Virus record (IMG/VR): IMGVR_UViG_3300045988_005096 | Location: 1-5,430 of that record | Direction: 5' to 3' (one strand) | Length of the DNA stretch: 5,430 nt | Source of the DNA: a virus | Shown here: positions 100-5,430 of the stretch, piece after piece | Numbering within the stretch: position 1 is the stretch's first letter | How the letters are laid out: each line of letters begins with the position of its first letter | Made by a program: the position numbers and the translations under genes | Notes under the pieces: generated by a model | Seen by the model: the letters and a program-made list of their open reading frames with translations, nothing else | The model's database searches: none | What the model was told of the DNA's origin: nothing

Positions 100-149
100 C
101 CGAACCCGAAGCAACGAAAGCAACAGAAGCAGCGGAGGCTAAAGAGTGA
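3..149 (+). CDS. VP3: C-terminal end of internal scaffolding protein VP3 (continuation of 4986..5430 across the circle junction)
   Basis: The frame starting at position 3 reads IKLKFDNNVDKFIASFGTVEWAKNLGIYQEKKAEPEATKATEAAEAKE and stops at TGA 147-149. It is in phase with the open frame running off the right end of the window (5334 = position 3). Confidence 0.85.
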   Translation: MKLKFDNNVDKFIASFGTVEWAKNLGIYQEKKAEPEATKATEAAEAKE

Positions 150-1837
150 ACAGAAACAAAGACGCAGGATTCAACCAAGTCCCACGCTTGGACATCACGC
201 GAAGTCGCTTCAAACGACGGCAGGACGTCAAGTTAACGCTGAATGCAGGACAACTTATTCCGTTCTATGTGGATGAAGTACTCCCGGGTGACACCTTCAG
301 CATTGACCAAGCAGCGATTATCCGCATGACAACGCCTATTTTTCCAGTTATGGATAACTGCTACATGGACATTTATTATTTCAATGTCCCATGCCGAATC
401 CTCTGGAAAAACTTCAAAAGGTTTATGGGTGAGAACGACACCAGACCGTGGGCGCAGACTCAGGAATACACCATTCCGCAGGTCAAAGTAACCGGCACAG
501 CAGCAAAACCAGCACCTTATGAGGGCAGCATCCTTGACTACATGGGCATTCCGACCAAGGTAAGCAAGGGAGCAGACACGGCCTTCAGCATCAACGCGCT
601 ACCCATGAGGGCGTATGCTATGATATGGCAGGAGTGGTTCAGAGACCAGAACGTGGACAATCCGGCCATCAACAGCGATGCAGACGCGACCGTGAACTAT
701 ACGGACGACGAAACCAAAGGCATGGACGCAGCAACACCGGACTTGGAGTATATTCTCCAGAACGCATACACAGGCGGCAGACCTTTACCAGTCAACAAAT
801 ACCACGACTACTTTACCAGCGCACTTCCTTCACCGCAGAAAGCGGGAAACCCCGTATCGATTCCGCTGAGCGGCAACGCAGCGGTGTACATGTATCAAGA
901 CACAACGCTGCAGACCAAAGGAACGATGAACAAAAAAGAATCGCTATATTTGCAAGGCGGTTCAGGGGCACAAAGTAGCTTCTACAACAACAACGAAGCG
1001 CTGGCAATATTGGGCGCAGAAGCACCCGGGGGCACAACCTCAGACGCCGCATATTTAGGGGCTGACCTTGCATCAATCAACGCGGCAACCATCAACCAGC
1101 TGCGACAGGCGTTTCAGGTTCAGAAATATTACGAAGAGCTGGCACGAGGCGGCAGCCGCTACCGTGAGATGATCTACTCGCTTTTCCACACCAAGATAAG
1201 CGATAAAACCGTACAGATTCCGGAGTATCTGGGCGGCACGCGTATAACCATCAATATGAGTCAGGTCATCCAGACCAGCGGCACAACTGCGGAAAGTCCG
1301 CAGGGCAACACCGCAGCCGTAAGCGTTACGCCGTACAACGGCAGTATGTTCACGAAGAGCTTTGAAGAACACGGCTTTGTTATCGGAGTGTGCTGCATCA
1401 GACATGACCACACCTATCAGCAGGGACTCGAACGAATGTGGAGCCGGAAAACCAATCTGGATTTTTATTATCCGGTCTTCGCAAATCTGGGAGAGCAAGC
1501 AATTCTCAAAAAAGAGCTGTACCTCACCGGCACGGACACAGATGAACAGGCATTCGGCTACCAAGAGGCTTGGGCTGAATACCGGATGAAACCAAACAGA
1601 ATCAGCGGCAAATTCCGGTCGAACGCTAAAGGAACTTTAGACAGCTGGCACTATGGCGACAACTACAGCGAGACGCCAAACCTCAGTCAGGCGTGGATGA
1701 AAGAAGGAGATTCCGAAATCCAACGAACACTGGCAGTAGACAACGAACCACAGTTTATCATGGATACCATCATCGACAACACCAGCGTCCGGCCTATGCC
1801 CATGTACAGCATTCCGGGACTCGTTGACCATCACTAA
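146..1837 (+). CDS. VP1: Major capsid protein VP1 (phiX174 F-protein family), 563 aa, GTG start
   Basis: The N-terminus FNQVPRLDITRSRF...LTLNAGQLIPFYVDEVLPGDTF matches the hallmark Microviridae capsid N-terminal pattern. GGAGG at 134-138 lies 7 nt upstream of GTG 146. An in-frame TAA at 140-142 excludes any earlier start. GTG 146-148 overlaps the VP3 stop TGA 147-149. Confidence 0.95.
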   Translation: MNRNKDAGFNQVPRLDITRSRFKRRQDVKLTLNAGQLIPFYVDEVLPGDTFSIDQAAIIRMTTPIFPVMDNCYMDIYYFNVPCRILWKNFKRFMGENDTRPWAQTQEYTIPQVKVTGTAAKPAPYEGSILDYMGIPTKVSKGADTAFSINALPMRAYAMIWQEWFRDQNVDNPAINSDADATVNYTDDETKGMDAATPDLEYILQNAYTGGRPLPVNKYHDYFTSALPSPQKAGNPVSIPLSGNAAVYMYQDTTLQTKGTMNKKESLYLQGGSGAQSSFYNNNEALAILGAEAPGGTTSDAAYLGADLASINAATINQLRQAFQVQKYYEELARGGSRYREMIYSLFHTKISDKTVQIPEYLGGTRITINMSQVIQTSGTTAESPQGNTAAVSVTPYNGSMFTKSFEEHGFVIGVCCIRHDHTYQQGLERMWSRKTNLDFYYPVFANLGEQAILKKELYLTGTDTDEQAFGYQEAWAEYRMKPNRISGKFRSNAKGTLDSWHYGDNYSETPNLSQAWMKEGDSEIQRTLAVDNEPQFIMDTIIDNTSVRPMPMYSIPGLVDHH

Positions 1838-1901: not shown

Positions 1902-2774
1902 ATGGCTTTTTTAATTCCATTCCTGAAAACAGCAGCAATGCAAATGATTCCAGCATTCGCAGGAGCAGCAGCAAATAAACTCTTTGGGACAAGCGGAGGC
2001 TATGGACAGCAAGGACAATCCAACAGTCAAAGCAGCGGCTCAAGCTGGGCACAAAGCACAAGCAACAGCGGAAGCATGAGCAGCAGCGGGACAAATGACG
2101 AAGTAAACAAAAGCATCGCAGCACTAGCAAATCAGTTAAGCCAAGGTAGCATGGCAGGACAGCAGAAATACAATCGAAATTCCATGCTTATGCAAATGGG
2201 CTACAACACGTTCGCTGCAATTCAGCAGGGAGTGTACAACCACATCGAGCAGCAAACGGCAATGAACTTTAACAGCGCAGAGGCCGCAAAAAACAGAGCA
2301 TGGCAAGAGCAAATGAGCAATACATCTTACCAAAGAGCAGTCGAGGACATGAAAAAAGCTGGCATCAACCCTATCTTAGCATACACACAAGGCGGAGCAA
2401 GCACACCGAGCGGAGCGCAGGGAACAATCGGAAGCGCAAGTATGGGCATGGCATCCAGTAGCGCACTGGGGGCGACAGCATTGCCGGGAATCAAACAAGA
2501 CGGAAGTTGGAGCAGCCACAGCGAAGCATGGAGTCACGCAGAAAGCGCAGCACAGAGCATTCAGCAAGCTATCATGTCAAGCAGCTCAAGCCCTGTCAGA
2601 CTCAGGGGAGACATGGAACGCATCGCAGAAACAGCAGTAGATGGAGCAATAAAGCTCAAAGAAAAACTTGCAGCACTGCCGGTATCGGACAAGGAAAGAC
2701 GGAAATCCGCAGAAAACCTTGAAAGAGTACGGCGGCAAACAATCGGAATGGGAACAACCGGAAATTATTGGTAA
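1902..2774 (+). CDS. VP2: Minor capsid / DNA pilot protein VP2, 290 aa
   Basis: Position immediately after VP1. Hydrophobic N-terminus, then a Ser/Gly/Gln-rich low-complexity segment. The motif [20 protein letters not shown] resembles the conserved gokushovirus VP2 core (YQR...AG.NP.LA). Confidence 0.85.
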
Positions 2775-2779
2775 CAAAA

Positions 2780-3799
2780 ATGGGATGCAACAAGCCGTTA
2801 ATTCGGTTTTACGTACCTCACGACAAAGAGGCAAGTGGAAGAGTGTATTCACTTGCCTCTTTTAACGAGATACACAAGACCAAAATGACATACGAAAACT
2901 TAATGTACCGCAAAGATGTAATGTTGATACCATGCGGACAGTGTACAGGGTGCAGGCTCAGAAAACGAAAAGACTGGGCCACGCGGATGGAGCTAGAAGC
3001 ATACGGATACGACAAAGAAAGTATCTGGTTTATCACACTAACGTACGACGATGACCATGTACCAACACAAGACACCGAAACAGGCGAAATCTACAAAGGT
3101 GGAGTAAACGTCTGGAAAGGCGTCTCAGAGCGTCCAAGAACAACGCAAACACTGAGCGTGGAGGATACCCAACTCTTCATCAAAAGGCTAAGAAAGGCCG
3201 TCAAAGAGCCTCTGAGATACTTTTTAGCCGGAGAGTATGGAGACAACACGGCAAGACCACACTATCACATGATACTGTACGGGTGGCATCCCGACGACTT
3301 AAAGCCAATCCATAAACTATCAAGACACGGTCACTACACAAGTGATAAACTGGTCAAAATCTGGGGACAAGGCACAGTTGACATAGCACAGGCAACACCA
3401 GAGACATATAATTATGTTGCAGGGTACGTAACAAAAAAACTATACGGGAACGACAAAAAGCGTTACCAAAAAATGGGTTTAATACCACCATTTTGCACAA
3501 TGAGCCGAAAGCCGGGACTCGGAGACCAATGGTTCCAAGACCATCAAGAACGACTCTGGCAGCAGGGATACATACAGCTTACCAACGGCAAGAGAGCAGC
3601 CATACCGGAATACTACTGGCGAAAACTGGAAGCGGAAAACCCTGAAAAAGCATGGAGAATCAAACAGTATCGGCAGGAAAAAGCCATTGCCTCCCTAATC
3701 GAAAAAAACGCGGAAACAGATAAATCATACGCAGAGCAGCTAAAGGACAAGGAAGCATCCATGTCCAAGAAGATGAGCAAAGCCAAAGGTGTATTTTGA
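2780..3799 (+). CDS. VP4: Rolling-circle replication initiator VP4 (HUH endonuclease; phiX174 A-protein analogue), 339 aa from ATG 2780
   Basis: RCR motif 1 FITLTY (3029-3046). HUH motif PHYHMILYG (H-Y-H at 3260-3268). Two-tyrosine motif YVAGYVTKK (Tyr codons at 3413 and 3425). Cys cluster PCGQCTGCR. The ORF track opens at TTG 2768, but ATG 2780 gives the typical MGC..P N-terminus. Confidence 0.93.
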   Translation: MGCNKPLIRFYVPHDKEASGRVYSLASFNEIHKTKMTYENLMYRKDVMLIPCGQCTGCRLRKRKDWATRMELEAYGYDKESIWFITLTYDDDHVPTQDTETGEIYKGGVNVWKGVSERPRTTQTLSVEDTQLFIKRLRKAVKEPLRYFLAGEYGDNTARPHYHMILYGWHPDDLKPIHKLSRHGHYTSDKLVKIWGQGTVDIAQATPETYNYVAGYVTKKLYGNDKKRYQKMGLIPPFCTMSRKPGLGDQWFQDHQERLWQQGYIQLTNGKRAAIPEYYWRKLEAENPEKAWRIKQYRQEKAIASLIEKNAETDKSYAEQLKDKEASMSKKMSKAKGVF

Positions 3800-3810: not shown

Positions 3811-3857
3811 CACTCAGCCAAGTAACTATCAAGTATAGACTTGGCTGAGTGTTTTTT
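3811..3857 (+). terminator. Rho-independent terminator downstream of VP4
   Basis: Perfect 13-bp stem: cactcagccaagt (3811-3823) pairs with acttggctgagtg (3839-3851). The loop is 15 nt. T6 follows directly (3852-3857), 12 nt after the VP4 stop. Confidence 0.85.
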
Positions 3858-3868
3858 ATTTCATATTG

Positions 3869-3909
3869 ACATATGCACGCGCGCACGTAATCGCGCACAC
3901 GCGCACATG
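3869..3909. repeat. Two alternating purine/pyrimidine (CG/CA) tracts carrying a GCACRCGCGCAC direct repeat
   Basis: 3869-3889 (21 nt) and 3892-3909 (18 nt) alternate R/Y without exception. gcacgcgcgcac (3875-3886) and gcacacgcgcac (3895-3906) match 11/12. This is a GC island inside an AT-rich spacer. Confidence 0.8.
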
Positions 3910-3910
3910 A

Positions 3911-3943
3911 TATTATTATTATTTGTTGTAGTCGTAGTAGTAG
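3911..3943. repeat. Triplet-periodic low-complexity block (TNN)x11
   Basis: Reads tat tat tat tat ttg ttg tag tcg tag tag tag, with T at every third position for 33 nt. Confidence 0.8.
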
Positions 3944-3954
3944 GGAGTGTTGAA

Positions 3955-4038
3955 ATGTTGAATACTATGAATTTTTATCCTTGGAACGATATTTTATGGA
4001 TTATTTTGATGTTAATACTTTTGTGGATAACTTGTTGA
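3955..4038 (+). CDS. Speculative 27-aa hydrophobic mini-ORF (MLNTMNFYPWNDILWIILMLILLWITC)
   Basis: ATG 3955 is preceded by GGGAG (3943-3947) at 7-nt spacing. The C-terminal 15-18 residues are hydrophobic. However, it lies in T-rich non-coding DNA that overlaps the repeat array, between the terminator and the main promoter. Confidence 0.15.
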   Translation: MLNTMNFYPWNDILWIILMLILLWITC

Positions 4039-4062
4039 ATTGTTGAAAGTGTAGCAATATGC

Positions 4063-4080
4063 ACAAAACCATTTGTACAA
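4063..4080. repeat. 18-nt direct repeat, copy 1 (ACAAAACCATTTGTACAA)
   Basis: Matches 4289-4306 at 17/18. Contains the perfect palindrome TTGTACAA (4073-4080). Confidence 0.85.
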
Positions 4081-4165
4081 CTTTTCGTGGAAAACCTGTT
4101 GAAAATGTTGAAAACGTGGAAAATTCGAATTAAAGGCCGTCCGGCGAGCGAAACCAGAAAGTCAC

Positions 4166-4205
4166 GTCATGCTCTTCGCACGGCGCACCGCGCCTACCGC
4201 ATGAC
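4166..4205 (+). other. GC-rich nested hairpin in the non-coding region
   Basis: Outer stem: gtcatgc (4166-4172) pairs with gcatgac (4199-4205). Inner stem: ggcgc (4182-4186) pairs with gcgcc (4190-4194), with a 3-nt loop. It sits in a locally GC-rich segment (about 4135-4205) flanked by AT-rich DNA. Confidence 0.5.
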
Positions 4206-4226
4206 CTCTTAAAGAAAAAAGAAAGC

Positions 4227-4255
4227 TTGACAAACCCTCTGCCTTATGATATAAC
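4227..4255 (+). promoter_or_regulatory. Near-consensus sigma70-type promoter with extended -10
   Basis: -35 TTGACA (4227-4232), a 17-nt spacer, then TGaTATAAC (TG 4247-4248, hexamer 4250-4255). An A-rich UP-like tract aaagaaaaaagaaagc lies just upstream (4211-4226). It points into the small-ORF/VP3/VP1 gene chain. Confidence 0.7.
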
Positions 4256-4288: not shown

Positions 4289-4306
4289 ACAAAACCATTT
4301 ATACAA
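4289..4306. repeat. 18-nt direct repeat, copy 2 (ACAAAACCATTTATACAA)
   Basis: Matches 4063-4080 at 17/18. Lies in the predicted 5' leader, 12 nt upstream of the SD at 4319-4327. Confidence 0.85.
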
Positions 4307-5008: not shown

Positions 5009-5430
5009 CTGGCGGGAAACCGCAACAGCAAAACCAACCGAGGCCGGGGAAAGCGTAAGACGCACTTATCTCTGGGAACGCAATGAAAAAGGCGAAAAGG
5101 TGCTAAGACTCGACCAAACCATTGACCAGCAGGCCGAAATCGACTCCTATTTGGAAGAAACCAAGCTGGAAAACATCATCCGGCAAGCAAGCATCGACCC
5201 GGACATTGCAGCACGTATCAAGCCGGACATCGGGGGCGGCATCCAAGACTTTACCGAAGCACCGCAGAATCTGGCCGAACTCCAGAACATCATGATGCGA
5301 GCAGAGCAAATCTGGGACGAGGTGCCGAAAGACATCAAGCTCAAGTTTGACAACAATGTGGACAAATTCATTGCATCGTTTGGCACAGTCGAATGGGCCA
5401 AAAATCTGGGCATTTACCAAGAAAAAAAAG
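4986..5430 (+). CDS. VP3: Internal scaffolding protein VP3, N-terminal 148 codons; the frame runs off the window end and finishes at 147-149 on the circle (164 aa in total)
   Basis: AAGGAGA (4970-4976) lies 9 nt before ATG 4986. There is no stop through 5430. The sequence MAFRSVSNWRE...EVPKDIKLKFDNNVDKFIASF is consistent with the VP3 C-terminal motif. Position directly upstream of VP1. Confidence 0.85.
   Translation, partial: MAFRSVSNWRETATAKPTEAGESVRRTYLWERNEKGEKVLRLDQTIDQQAEIDSYLEETKLENIIRQASIDPDIAARIKPDIGGGIQDFTEAPQNLAELQNIMMRAEQIWDEVPKDIKLKFDNNVDKFIASFGTVEWAKNLGIYQEKK
5332..5430. repeat. Terminal redundancy, right copy (identical to 1..99)
   Basis: Same 99 nt as 1..99. Most simply explained as a k-mer-length overlap left by linearising a circular assembly. 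Confidence 0.97.

Follow-up and report, generated by a model that had tools for sequence, protein, structure and literature searches.

The oriC "basal unwinding system" (BUS) defined by Pelliciari et al. consists of a tandem pair of DnaA boxes, a ~4-nt gap, at least three DnaA-trios and AT-rich DNA beyond them (PMC8287927). The DnaA-trio reads 3′-GAT-5′, that is 5′-TAG-3′, with a conserved middle A, and is encoded on the 5′ tail extending from the boxes (PMC8287927). In the dnaA-dnaN (incC) origin of Bacillus subtilis the BUS comprises DnaA-boxes #6/#7, DnaA-trios and AT-rich DNA, and such a unit is predicted in 85% of bacterial origins (PMC8287927; PMC6669920). Here we describe an element with this anatomy in a single-stranded DNA (ssDNA) phage of the gut. 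The stretch of 5,430 nt that was analysed (IMG/VR record IMGVR_UViG_3300045988_005096; hereafter the window) is a complete circular gokushovirus genome (Microviridae) of ~5.3 kb, positions 1–99 of which recur at 5332–5430. The element lies in the non-coding region 3′ of the gene for the rolling-circle initiator VP4 and begins with an AT-rich tract, followed by DnaA-trios and, after a short gap, by two abutting boxes and two further box clusters of the same sense (Table 1).

Re-read in the 5′ to 3′ direction (Table S2 of PMC8287927 prints them 3′ to 5′), the unwinding unit of B. subtilis is TAGTAGAAGTAATAGTAG-GGCC-TGTGGATT-TGTGGATAA and that of C. botulinum is ...TAGTAGTAG-GGCT-TGTTGATA-TGTTAATAA. 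The phage element and these two origins are alike in having an 8-nt and a 9-nt box, a 4-nt gap and a spacer of 12 nt (PMC8287927), and the phage boxes are of the TGTT type, which is Clostridium-like. The rules by which a BUS is recognised can be followed part by part. The better box of the pair may carry at most two mismatches, and the other at most four, to the standard or to a species-specific motif; TGTTGAAA has two mismatches to TGTGGATA and TGTTGAATA three to TGTGGATAA, and against the Oscillospirales-type box TGTTGAAAA these numbers fall to zero and one, respectively. Tandem boxes are of the same sense and abut or lie no more than 3 nt apart, and in the phage the box at 3948–3955 abuts that at 3956–3964. 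At least three consecutive NAN trios, preferably 3′-GAT-5′, are expected 5′ of the boxes, where the phage has TAG TAG TAG (3935–3943). The spacer between the better box and the first trio is at most 16 nt, with a peak at 10–13 nt and a gap of about 4 nt; in the window the gap is GGAG and the spacer from the distal box measures 12 nt. Finally, the DNA beyond the trios is AT-rich: the + strand 5′ of them reads TAT four times, the 16 nt 5′ of the trio block have a median AT content of 87.5% in 153 distinct elements (described below) against 54% for the genomes, and, when the whole genome is considered in windows of 20 bp, the duplex is least stable at 3911–3930.

Table 1. Features of the putative origin-like element and of its surroundings (window coordinates).
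Feature	Position	Strand	Remark or basis
AT-rich tract, candidate DNA-unwinding element	3907–3922		sequence; duplex stability
DnaA-trio block TTG TTG TAG TCG TAG TAG TAG (5′-TAG-3′ = 3′-GAT-5′)	3923–3943	+	most conserved block of the element
4-nt gap GGAG, trios to first box	3944–3947	+	
Trio-proximal 8-nt DnaA box TGTTGAAA	3948–3955	+	
Abutting 9-nt DnaA box TGTTGAATA	3956–3964	+	
Degenerate box TGTTAATAC (family consensus TGTTGAAAG)	4011–4019	+	conservation in relatives
Perfect consensus DnaA box TGTGGATAA	4022–4030	+	
Two abutting boxes TGTTGAAT and TGTTGAAAG	4033–4049	+	
Third box cluster: CGTGGAAAA 4086–4094, TGTTGAAAA from 4097, TGTTGAAAA from 4106, CGTGGAAAA 4115–4123	4086–4123	+	final box least conserved
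GC-rich alternating purine/pyrimidine tract (ATGCACGCGCGCACGTAATCGCGCACACGCGCACATG)	3873–3909		5′ boundary of the AT-rich tract
Optional GC-rich conserved block, nested hairpin	4129–4207	+	GTCATGC 4166–4172 / GCATGAC 4199–4205; inner GGCGC-ACC-GCGCC 4182–4194
VP1	146–1837	+	
VP2	1902–2774	+	
VP4, rolling-circle initiator	2768–3799	+	motifs HYH and YVAGYV; Pfam PF23343

The initial annotation of this DNA had recorded a unidirectional array of DnaA-box-like 9-mers at 3948–4123. Reading of the sequence and comparison with shuffled controls bear this out: all units are present where they had been placed, in one orientation, and the arrangement is non-random. TGTTGAA starts at 3948, 3956, 4033, 4041, 4097, and 4106 on the + strand, and these six copies, confined to 3948–4112, are all that the 5,430-nt window contains (1.25 expected window-wide; 1 of 200 shuffles reaches six). 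The first units of the tandem pairs are indeed 85 and 64 nt apart. The comparison with shuffles that had been proposed as a check places the motif density above that of the controls: between 3900 and 4130 there are six forward 9-mers with no more than two mismatches to TGTGGATAA, against 1.18 in dinucleotide shuffles (six are reached once in 2000) and one on the reverse strand, and GTKGAAA occurs six times where 0.18 are expected and the shuffle maximum is three. Other details had to be revised. The extent of the array is real, and the most diagnostic parts of the element, the trios (3923–3943) and the AT-rich tract (3907–3922), lie directly 5′ of it. The units that had been listed are real too, and more boxes exist, for example the degenerate one at 4011–4019. 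On the other hand, the unit at 3995 (TAATCCATA/TATGGATTA) sits in a poorly conserved spacer and looks like chance, and the palindrome TTTTC-gtg-GAAAA noticed at 4082–4094 is just a box preceded by a run of T, with no conserved hairpin.

The element is conserved well beyond the window. At the DNA level, the segment 3910–4220 is conserved in 43 GenBank gokushovirus records, several of which have no other DNA similarity to the window. IMG/VR was scanned with two different anchors, and the search of other gokushovirus intergenic regions that had been suggested earlier returned comparable arrays in more than 150 gokushovirus genomes, whose VP1 is 40% to 87% identical to that of the window. As the first phage set was ascertained via the trio block, it was corrected by a second set, which took the second box cluster as its anchor and is unbiased for trios. 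Matches to the trio motif in viral contigs other than gokushoviruses were all (13 of 13) low-complexity coding repeats and were discarded.

Among 108 distinct elements, the trio block and every box come close to the maximal information content; the 4-nt gap and the spacers between clusters score low. In the set anchored on the second cluster, each of the three box-proximal trios is TAG in 65–66 of 66 variants; NAG or NCG stands in fourth place, and the substituted forms GAG, AAG, CAG, and TAA preserve the register and the middle A. The gap, by comparison, is hypervariable, spanning 3–4 nt of almost any sequence. To judge from these variants, the substitutions follow the pattern expected for DnaA-trios, and the overall conservation fits protein-binding sites. 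The two trio-proximal boxes keep their positions at +24 and +32 from the start of the trio block. Altogether, the 153 distinct elements contain 1217 forward boxes vs 34 reverse ones, i.e., ~8 per element at conserved positions, with the logo T-G-T-[T>G]-G-A-[A>T]-A-[A/G]. As for the perfect box to which the initial annotation had given first rank, it is indeed present at 4022–4030 (TTATCCACA on the – strand, which is TGTGGATAA on the + strand); however, the homologous site reads TGTTGAAAA in 65 of the 153 elements and TGTGGATAA in 28. Therefore, the perfect box is a lineage variant and not the key site, and both the family consensus and the host-type box are TGTTGAAAA.

Three other possibilities were considered and rejected. 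Coding sequence was dismissed, as any given frame is open across the element in at most 5% of the 153 relatives and conservation is confined to the repeats; for a structured RNA, Rfam gave no match anywhere in the window at E ≤ 1; and plasmid relatives were sought in PLSDB with no match.

The position of the element relative to the genes was determined in 111 relatives. It adjoins VP4 in all of them, but it has no fixed polarity vs the packaged strand: in 88 it is in the gene sense, 70–380 nt past the VP4 stop; 20 have it inverted ahead of VP4, the trio block lying 56–72 nt from the start of that gene (292 nt in a single genome); and the remaining 3 have it inverted on the downstream side of VP4. 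Its occurrence in either orientation relative to the genes fits a function on duplex DNA.

We then compared the phage element with bacterial chromosomes. The phage-derived pattern TAGTAGN{4,5}GTKGAAANGTKGAAW, which contains no reference to any gene, was scanned over one genome per bacterial species and retrieved at least 120 bacterial loci vs ~17 expected by chance if uniform base composition is assumed. Among the matches listed, to which the following figures refer, a dnaA gene signature adjoins the match in 90 of 120 loci; there, the DnaA Walker A motif is 1.0–1.35 kb off and the DnaA signature 220–700 nt off, on the strand opposite to the trio-to-box reading direction, and rpmH is often near. 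Prophages or contamination were rejected as the source of these matches, since none of the 120 loci encodes VP1, VP2, or VP4. In an Oscillospiraceae genome (L173), Pfam domains give the order dnaA, match, dnaN, the match being located within the 456-bp spacer.

TGTT-type boxes occupy both positions in origins of Oscillospiraceae (four), Ruminococcus, Candidatus Faeciplasma, gut Eubacteriales, an uncultured Firmicutes genome, and Syntrophomonadaceae. A mixed arrangement, TGTGGAAA followed by nGTTGAAA, is common in other phage clades and occurs in Ruminococcus, Ruthenibacterium, Acutalibacteraceae, Lachnospiraceae, Selenomonas, and other bacteria. In the origins of Oscillospiraceae, Ruminococcus, and Eubacteriales, AT-rich DNA is followed by TAG trios, GGGC, TGTTGAAA TGTTGAAAA, and more same-sense GTTGAAA boxes. 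TGTTGAAA occupies in the oriC of Oscillospiraceae and Ruminococcus the same position as the trio-proximal box of the phage, and the exchange of G and T at box position 4 is seen in phages and bacterial origins alike. The similarity extends to the layout: in four Oscillospiraceae/Eubacteriales origins (L173, L192, L204, L189) the core is followed, as in the phage, by 6–8 same-sense GTTGAAA boxes and by 0–1 in the opposite sense. Taken with the TAG trios at oriC-type spacing and the retention of the boxes in more than 150 relatives, the occurrence of the same motif at the dnaA-dnaN origins of gut Clostridia strongly supports the earlier proposal that the 9-mers are DnaA boxes. The interrupted run TAG TCG TAG TAG TAG of the window is also present in the chromosomal origins of a Bacillota genome (L164) and of Actinocrinis (L201); therefore, NCG as the fourth trio may be tolerated, or even used, in real origins.

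The box dialect TGTTGAAAA suggests that the hosts are gut Clostridia of the order Oscillospirales. Independently, Roux et al. tied peptidase genes of human-gut gokushoviruses to Faecalibacterium (PMC3394797), likewise a member of Oscillospirales.

A scan with the canonical pattern uncovered a second lineage, consisting of four microvirus genomes of 4.65–4.8 kb (IMG/VR contigs L316, L317, L325, and L328) whose VP1 and VP4 are 35–37% and 28–32% identical, respectively, to those of the window. These genomes carry their own version of the module: AT-rich DNA, (TAG)5-6, GCAT, TGTGGAAA TGTGGAAA, a spacer of ~36 nt, and 4–5 perfect TGTGGATAA boxes, all in one sense. In 4 of 4 the module is inverted relative to the genes and located just downstream of VP4. 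Canonical modules of trios plus two boxes were also noted on viral contigs of 9.7–109 kb (L311, L313–L315, L318–L324, L326, and L329), with no DnaA gene signature in the stretch examined; these contigs could be dsDNA (double-stranded DNA) phages or phage-plasmids whose origins depend on DnaA, or bacterial DNA binned in error.

The reading we favour, with a probability of roughly 0.55, is that 3907–4123 is a phage-borne miniature of a chromosome origin of the dnaA-dnaN type, opened by host DnaA on the replicative form. It builds on the observed anatomy, on the conservation pattern, and on the equivalence in sequence and layout to real bacterial origins. Host DnaA would bind the boxes on the double-stranded replicative form; ATP-DnaA, starting at the two boxes next to the trios, would then oligomerise onto the TAG strand and melt the neighbouring AT-rich DNA. 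The host helicase-loading pathway would subsequently build a replisome, so that the replicative form is copied or maintained by host-type initiation, and VP4, an HUH protein, would still drive the rolling-circle production of single strands. These steps do not carry equal weight. Binding of DnaA to the boxes is very probable, and opening of the duplex by DnaA is what we infer from the sequence; that the host helicase is loaded on the opened DNA and replication of the replicative form is thereby started or maintained has, in our estimate, slightly less than an even chance. A bolder version would give gut gokushoviruses two replication modes, rolling circle by VP4 and a working miniature oriC fired by host DnaA, allowing theta-type amplification or a plasmid-like carriage tied to the host cell cycle, with the box dialect revealing the host (Oscillospirales); we put it forward tentatively, as a possibility more doubtful than not.

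Several points weigh against the favoured reading. To our knowledge, the known Microviridae replicate by rolling circle with an initiator of their own and have no need for DnaA; as VP4 is intact, a second mode of initiation is not obviously needed. The AT-rich tract is short (~16 nt), shorter than the AT-rich 27-mer of B. subtilis, and when windows of 30–40 bp are considered 3910–3943 ranks only third or fourth among the least stable regions of the genome. The cultured gokushoviruses phiMH2K, Chp2, and SpV4 appear to be without the module in a strict scan (E. coli consensus, at most two mismatches), one that the window's own trio-proximal boxes also fail, passing only against the host-type motif. 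The host assignment draws on a single character, the box dialect, among the matches listed. Furthermore, the similarity between phage and bacteria is limited to a core of 31–43 nt and, because it spans no more than this, common descent and convergence are indistinguishable. A recent capture of a host origin was rejected on the same ground; the resemblance looks like mimicry or ancient capture and not like recent transfer.

Some features of the element would also be expected if the element served to sequester the host initiator. The replicative form, present in many copies and each with ~8–10 boxes and a trio platform, might soak up ATP-DnaA, whereby host initiation would be delayed or blocked, or DnaA-regulated genes retuned, and no replication would start at the element. 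Titration or hijacking of DnaA was the second role considered in the initial annotation. Dense box arrays and an element that works either way round agree with it, and titration of DnaA by box clusters of the datA type is an established control mechanism (PMC3245932). However, titration needs boxes alone, yet the trios, the exact spacing, and the AT-rich tract are the best conserved parts. Moreover, when a multicopy plasmid with a DnaA-box cluster was introduced in B. subtilis it bound DnaA, but over-initiation was left uncorrected (PMC3245932); therefore, titration by a plasmid is not a given in Firmicutes. We retain this explanation as an unlikely one, although it is the main rival of the favoured reading.

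Enzymes of the HUH class require single-stranded substrates, and DnaA might be employed just to provide one: by melting the duplex beside the VP4 gene, it would allow this nuclease to reach its nick site and begin rolling-circle replication, with no helicase loading. The constant proximity of the element to VP4 (70–380 nt after the stop or 56–72 nt before the start) and the integrity of VP4 as an HUH initiator are in line with such assistance. It is difficult to reconcile with the inversion in 23 of 111 relatives, which swaps the strand freed by the DnaA filament, whereas the nick must stay on the viral strand; in addition, the cultured gokushoviruses scanned appear to do without the module. 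We deem this role improbable.

An action on the incoming single strand was the first role put forward in the initial annotation. DnaA bound to a hairpin with a duplex box would assemble a primosome in the manner of an A-site (ABC primosome), making the element a complementary-strand origin. The precedent of the A-site on M13 single-stranded DNA is real (PMC6127211), and 4019–4029 can pair with 4058–4068, which would include most of the perfect box in a stem. This stem, the only one to involve a box, contains a G-G mismatch within that box and lacks conservation, being lost where relatives carry TGTTGAAAA. Unidirectional boxes cannot pair with one another; the folding of 3905–4125 equals that of shuffles on either strand (z = 0.00 for the + strand, 0.22 for the – strand); and in 23 of 111 relatives the viral strand bears the complement of the element. 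Free orientation, shuffle-level folding, and unidirectional unpairable boxes therefore favour duplex action over the single-strand hairpin model, to which we attach very little probability.

Equally improbable is that the repeats are iterons or operators for a phage or host protein other than DnaA, the third role initially considered, and that their likeness to DnaA sites is coincidental. The family consensus TGTTGAAAA does differ from TTATCCACA at 2 of 9 positions, but the same TGTTGAAA boxes, TAG trios, and spacing recur in the dnaA-dnaN spacers of Clostridia, the second microvirus lineage has perfect TGTGGATAA boxes in the same layout, and the exchange at box position 4 is common to both phages and bacterial origins. 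Least probable of all is that DnaA acts here as a transcription factor, as it does in many bacteria, coupling the downstream genes to the DnaA status of the host through the promoter-like TTGACA-17-TATAAC found ~100 nt downstream of the array: this leaves the trios, the AT-rich tract, and the oriC-type spacing unexplained, and the inverted arrangement changes the relation of the array to the neighbouring genes.

Turning to the surroundings of the element, all genes of the window are on the + strand, and VP4 is an intact HUH initiator according to its motifs and Pfam family (Table 1). Its gene is followed by ~535 nt of non-coding DNA and then by small open reading frames (ORFs) and VP3. The closest GenBank records, named "Gokushovirus WZ-2015a" and originating from human and monkey samples, are 88–89% identical. 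Directly after the VP4 stop, a perfect 13-bp inverted repeat followed by a run of T (3811–3858) resembles a terminator; it escaped the terminator scan because its loop is 15 nt long. The alternating tract at 3873–3909 (GCACGCGCGCACGT..CGCGCACACGCGCACATG) is in principle prone to adopt the Z-DNA form, and an alternating run of at least 10 nt (median 18) is present between –60 and –11 from the trio block in 84 of 153 distinct elements. The hexamer AACTTG, which matches the core of CAACTTG, the heptamer at which phiX174 gene A cleaves, recurs directly 5′ of TTGTTGTAG in most relatives and in cluster 2 (4029–4034 of the window). As a VP4 nick site 5′ of the trios it was dropped, since the window has ATTTG there and it would be on the wrong strand in inverted genomes.

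Within the array, a hydrophobic ORF of 23 codons (MNFYPWNDILWIILMLILLWITC; 3968–4039) crosses the spacer that separates the first two box clusters. In the window's own clade this spacer is well conserved, with some third-position changes (CCT/CCG/CCA), and in other clades it is occupied by unrelated sequence; no ribosome-binding site was found at a suitable distance from the ORF. An 18-nt direct repeat (ACAAAACCATTTGTACAA / ACAAAACCATTTATACAA) occurs at 4063–4080, between box clusters 2 and 3, and at 4289–4306, between a near-consensus promoter-like site and the ribosome-binding site of the next gene. The promoter-like site (TTGACA-17 nt-TATAAC, 4227–4255) is upstream of the downstream genes and was overlooked by the promoter scan because the latter demands T at the last position. 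At the place of the first repeat copy, relatives have a small palindrome of variable sequence (TGCACAAA..TTTGTGCA, CGTCAAAATGACG or GTCATTATGAC) followed by the conserved TTGTGCAAC. The repeat may be an operator common to the origin-like element and to the promoter.

The GC-rich block beyond the last box cluster (AATTAAAGGC...ACGTCATGC...GGCGC-ACC-GCGCC...GCATGACC) reaches 93–96% identity between gokushoviruses that are otherwise dissimilar. Of 155 module-carrying genomes, 36 contain it, always on the same strand, 220–290 nt past the trio start and just after the last box cluster, and its fold energy is no better than that of shuffles. It is probably a separate module, and may be a cis element in its own right such as a strand origin or nick site.

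As an unwinding unit, the module is a defining feature of bacterial chromosome origins, and its presence in Microviridae would be unexpected for three reasons: its conservation exceeds that of the coding sequence, several records sharing DNA similarity with the window only there; two distant lineages have it, each in a box dialect of its own; and rolling-circle replication independent of DnaA has its textbook example in the Microviridae. The BUS itself is already known; what is new is that a putative chromosomal DnaA unwinding module is carried by ssDNA phages. Full-text literature searches brought up no paper that connects DnaA boxes or trios with gokushoviruses or Microviridae, and the apparent absence of the module from the cultured gokushoviruses scanned may explain why it has gone undescribed. 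If functional, the element would introduce a step dependent on the host initiator in the life cycle of the most abundant ssDNA phages of the gut, and might point to plasmid-like persistence of these phages or to interference with host replication. Matching the box dialect of a phage to the oriC of its host would also permit host prediction for uncultured microviruses; for Oscillospirales (Clostridia) we know of no cultured microvirus. Finally, the core of ~60 nt would be a compact natural substrate for studies of unwinding driven by DnaA-trios in Clostridia.

Mobile replicons that borrow host DnaA are familiar from the origins of the theta replicons P1 (oriR), pSC101, F, and RK2, where a plasmid Rep acting on its own iterons drives initiation and DnaA helps. 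The phage differs in having no such Rep or iterons, VP4 (PF23343) being the sole initiator with no other candidate ORF in 5.3 kb; its module copies the DnaA-only unwinding unit of chromosomes. In the Microviridae, the complementary-strand origins of phiX174 (PriA assembly site) and G4 (primase site) are likewise non-coding elements which recruit host replication proteins, but they are single-stranded hairpins with a single working orientation, and they are independent of DnaA. The A-site of plasmid R6K and the ABC primosome, in the account that PMC6127211 gives of them (M13 A-site assay; Masai & Arai, cited therein), resemble the phage element in that host DnaA is recruited to a small replicon or single-stranded phage template for loading of helicase and primase. 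As outlined in that source, the A-site is one DnaA box in a stable single-stranded hairpin, whereas the phage has unpaired same-sense boxes plus trios in no fixed orientation (88 gene-sense vs 23 inverted, and 4 of 4 inverted in the second lineage). Titration clusters, such as E. coli datA and the DnaA-box clusters of B. subtilis (PMC3245932), share with the element the presence of several DnaA boxes outside oriC; however, they are chromosomal and have neither DnaA-trios nor an adjoining unwinding element. The phage element is not an A-site, an iteron origin, or a plain titration cluster. By the sequence rules it qualifies as a BUS, from which, in the features compared, it departs only in location, being placed between VP4 and the next phage gene and not in a chromosomal origin beside dnaA/dnaN. 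It differs from the chromosomal systems in lying beside a rolling-circle initiator gene in a 5.3-kb ssDNA phage, in occurring in either orientation, and in its shorter AT-rich tract; on the other hand, order, polarity, and spacing are the same, and the core is nearly identical to that of the origins in Oscillospiraceae and Ruminococcus metagenome-assembled genomes.

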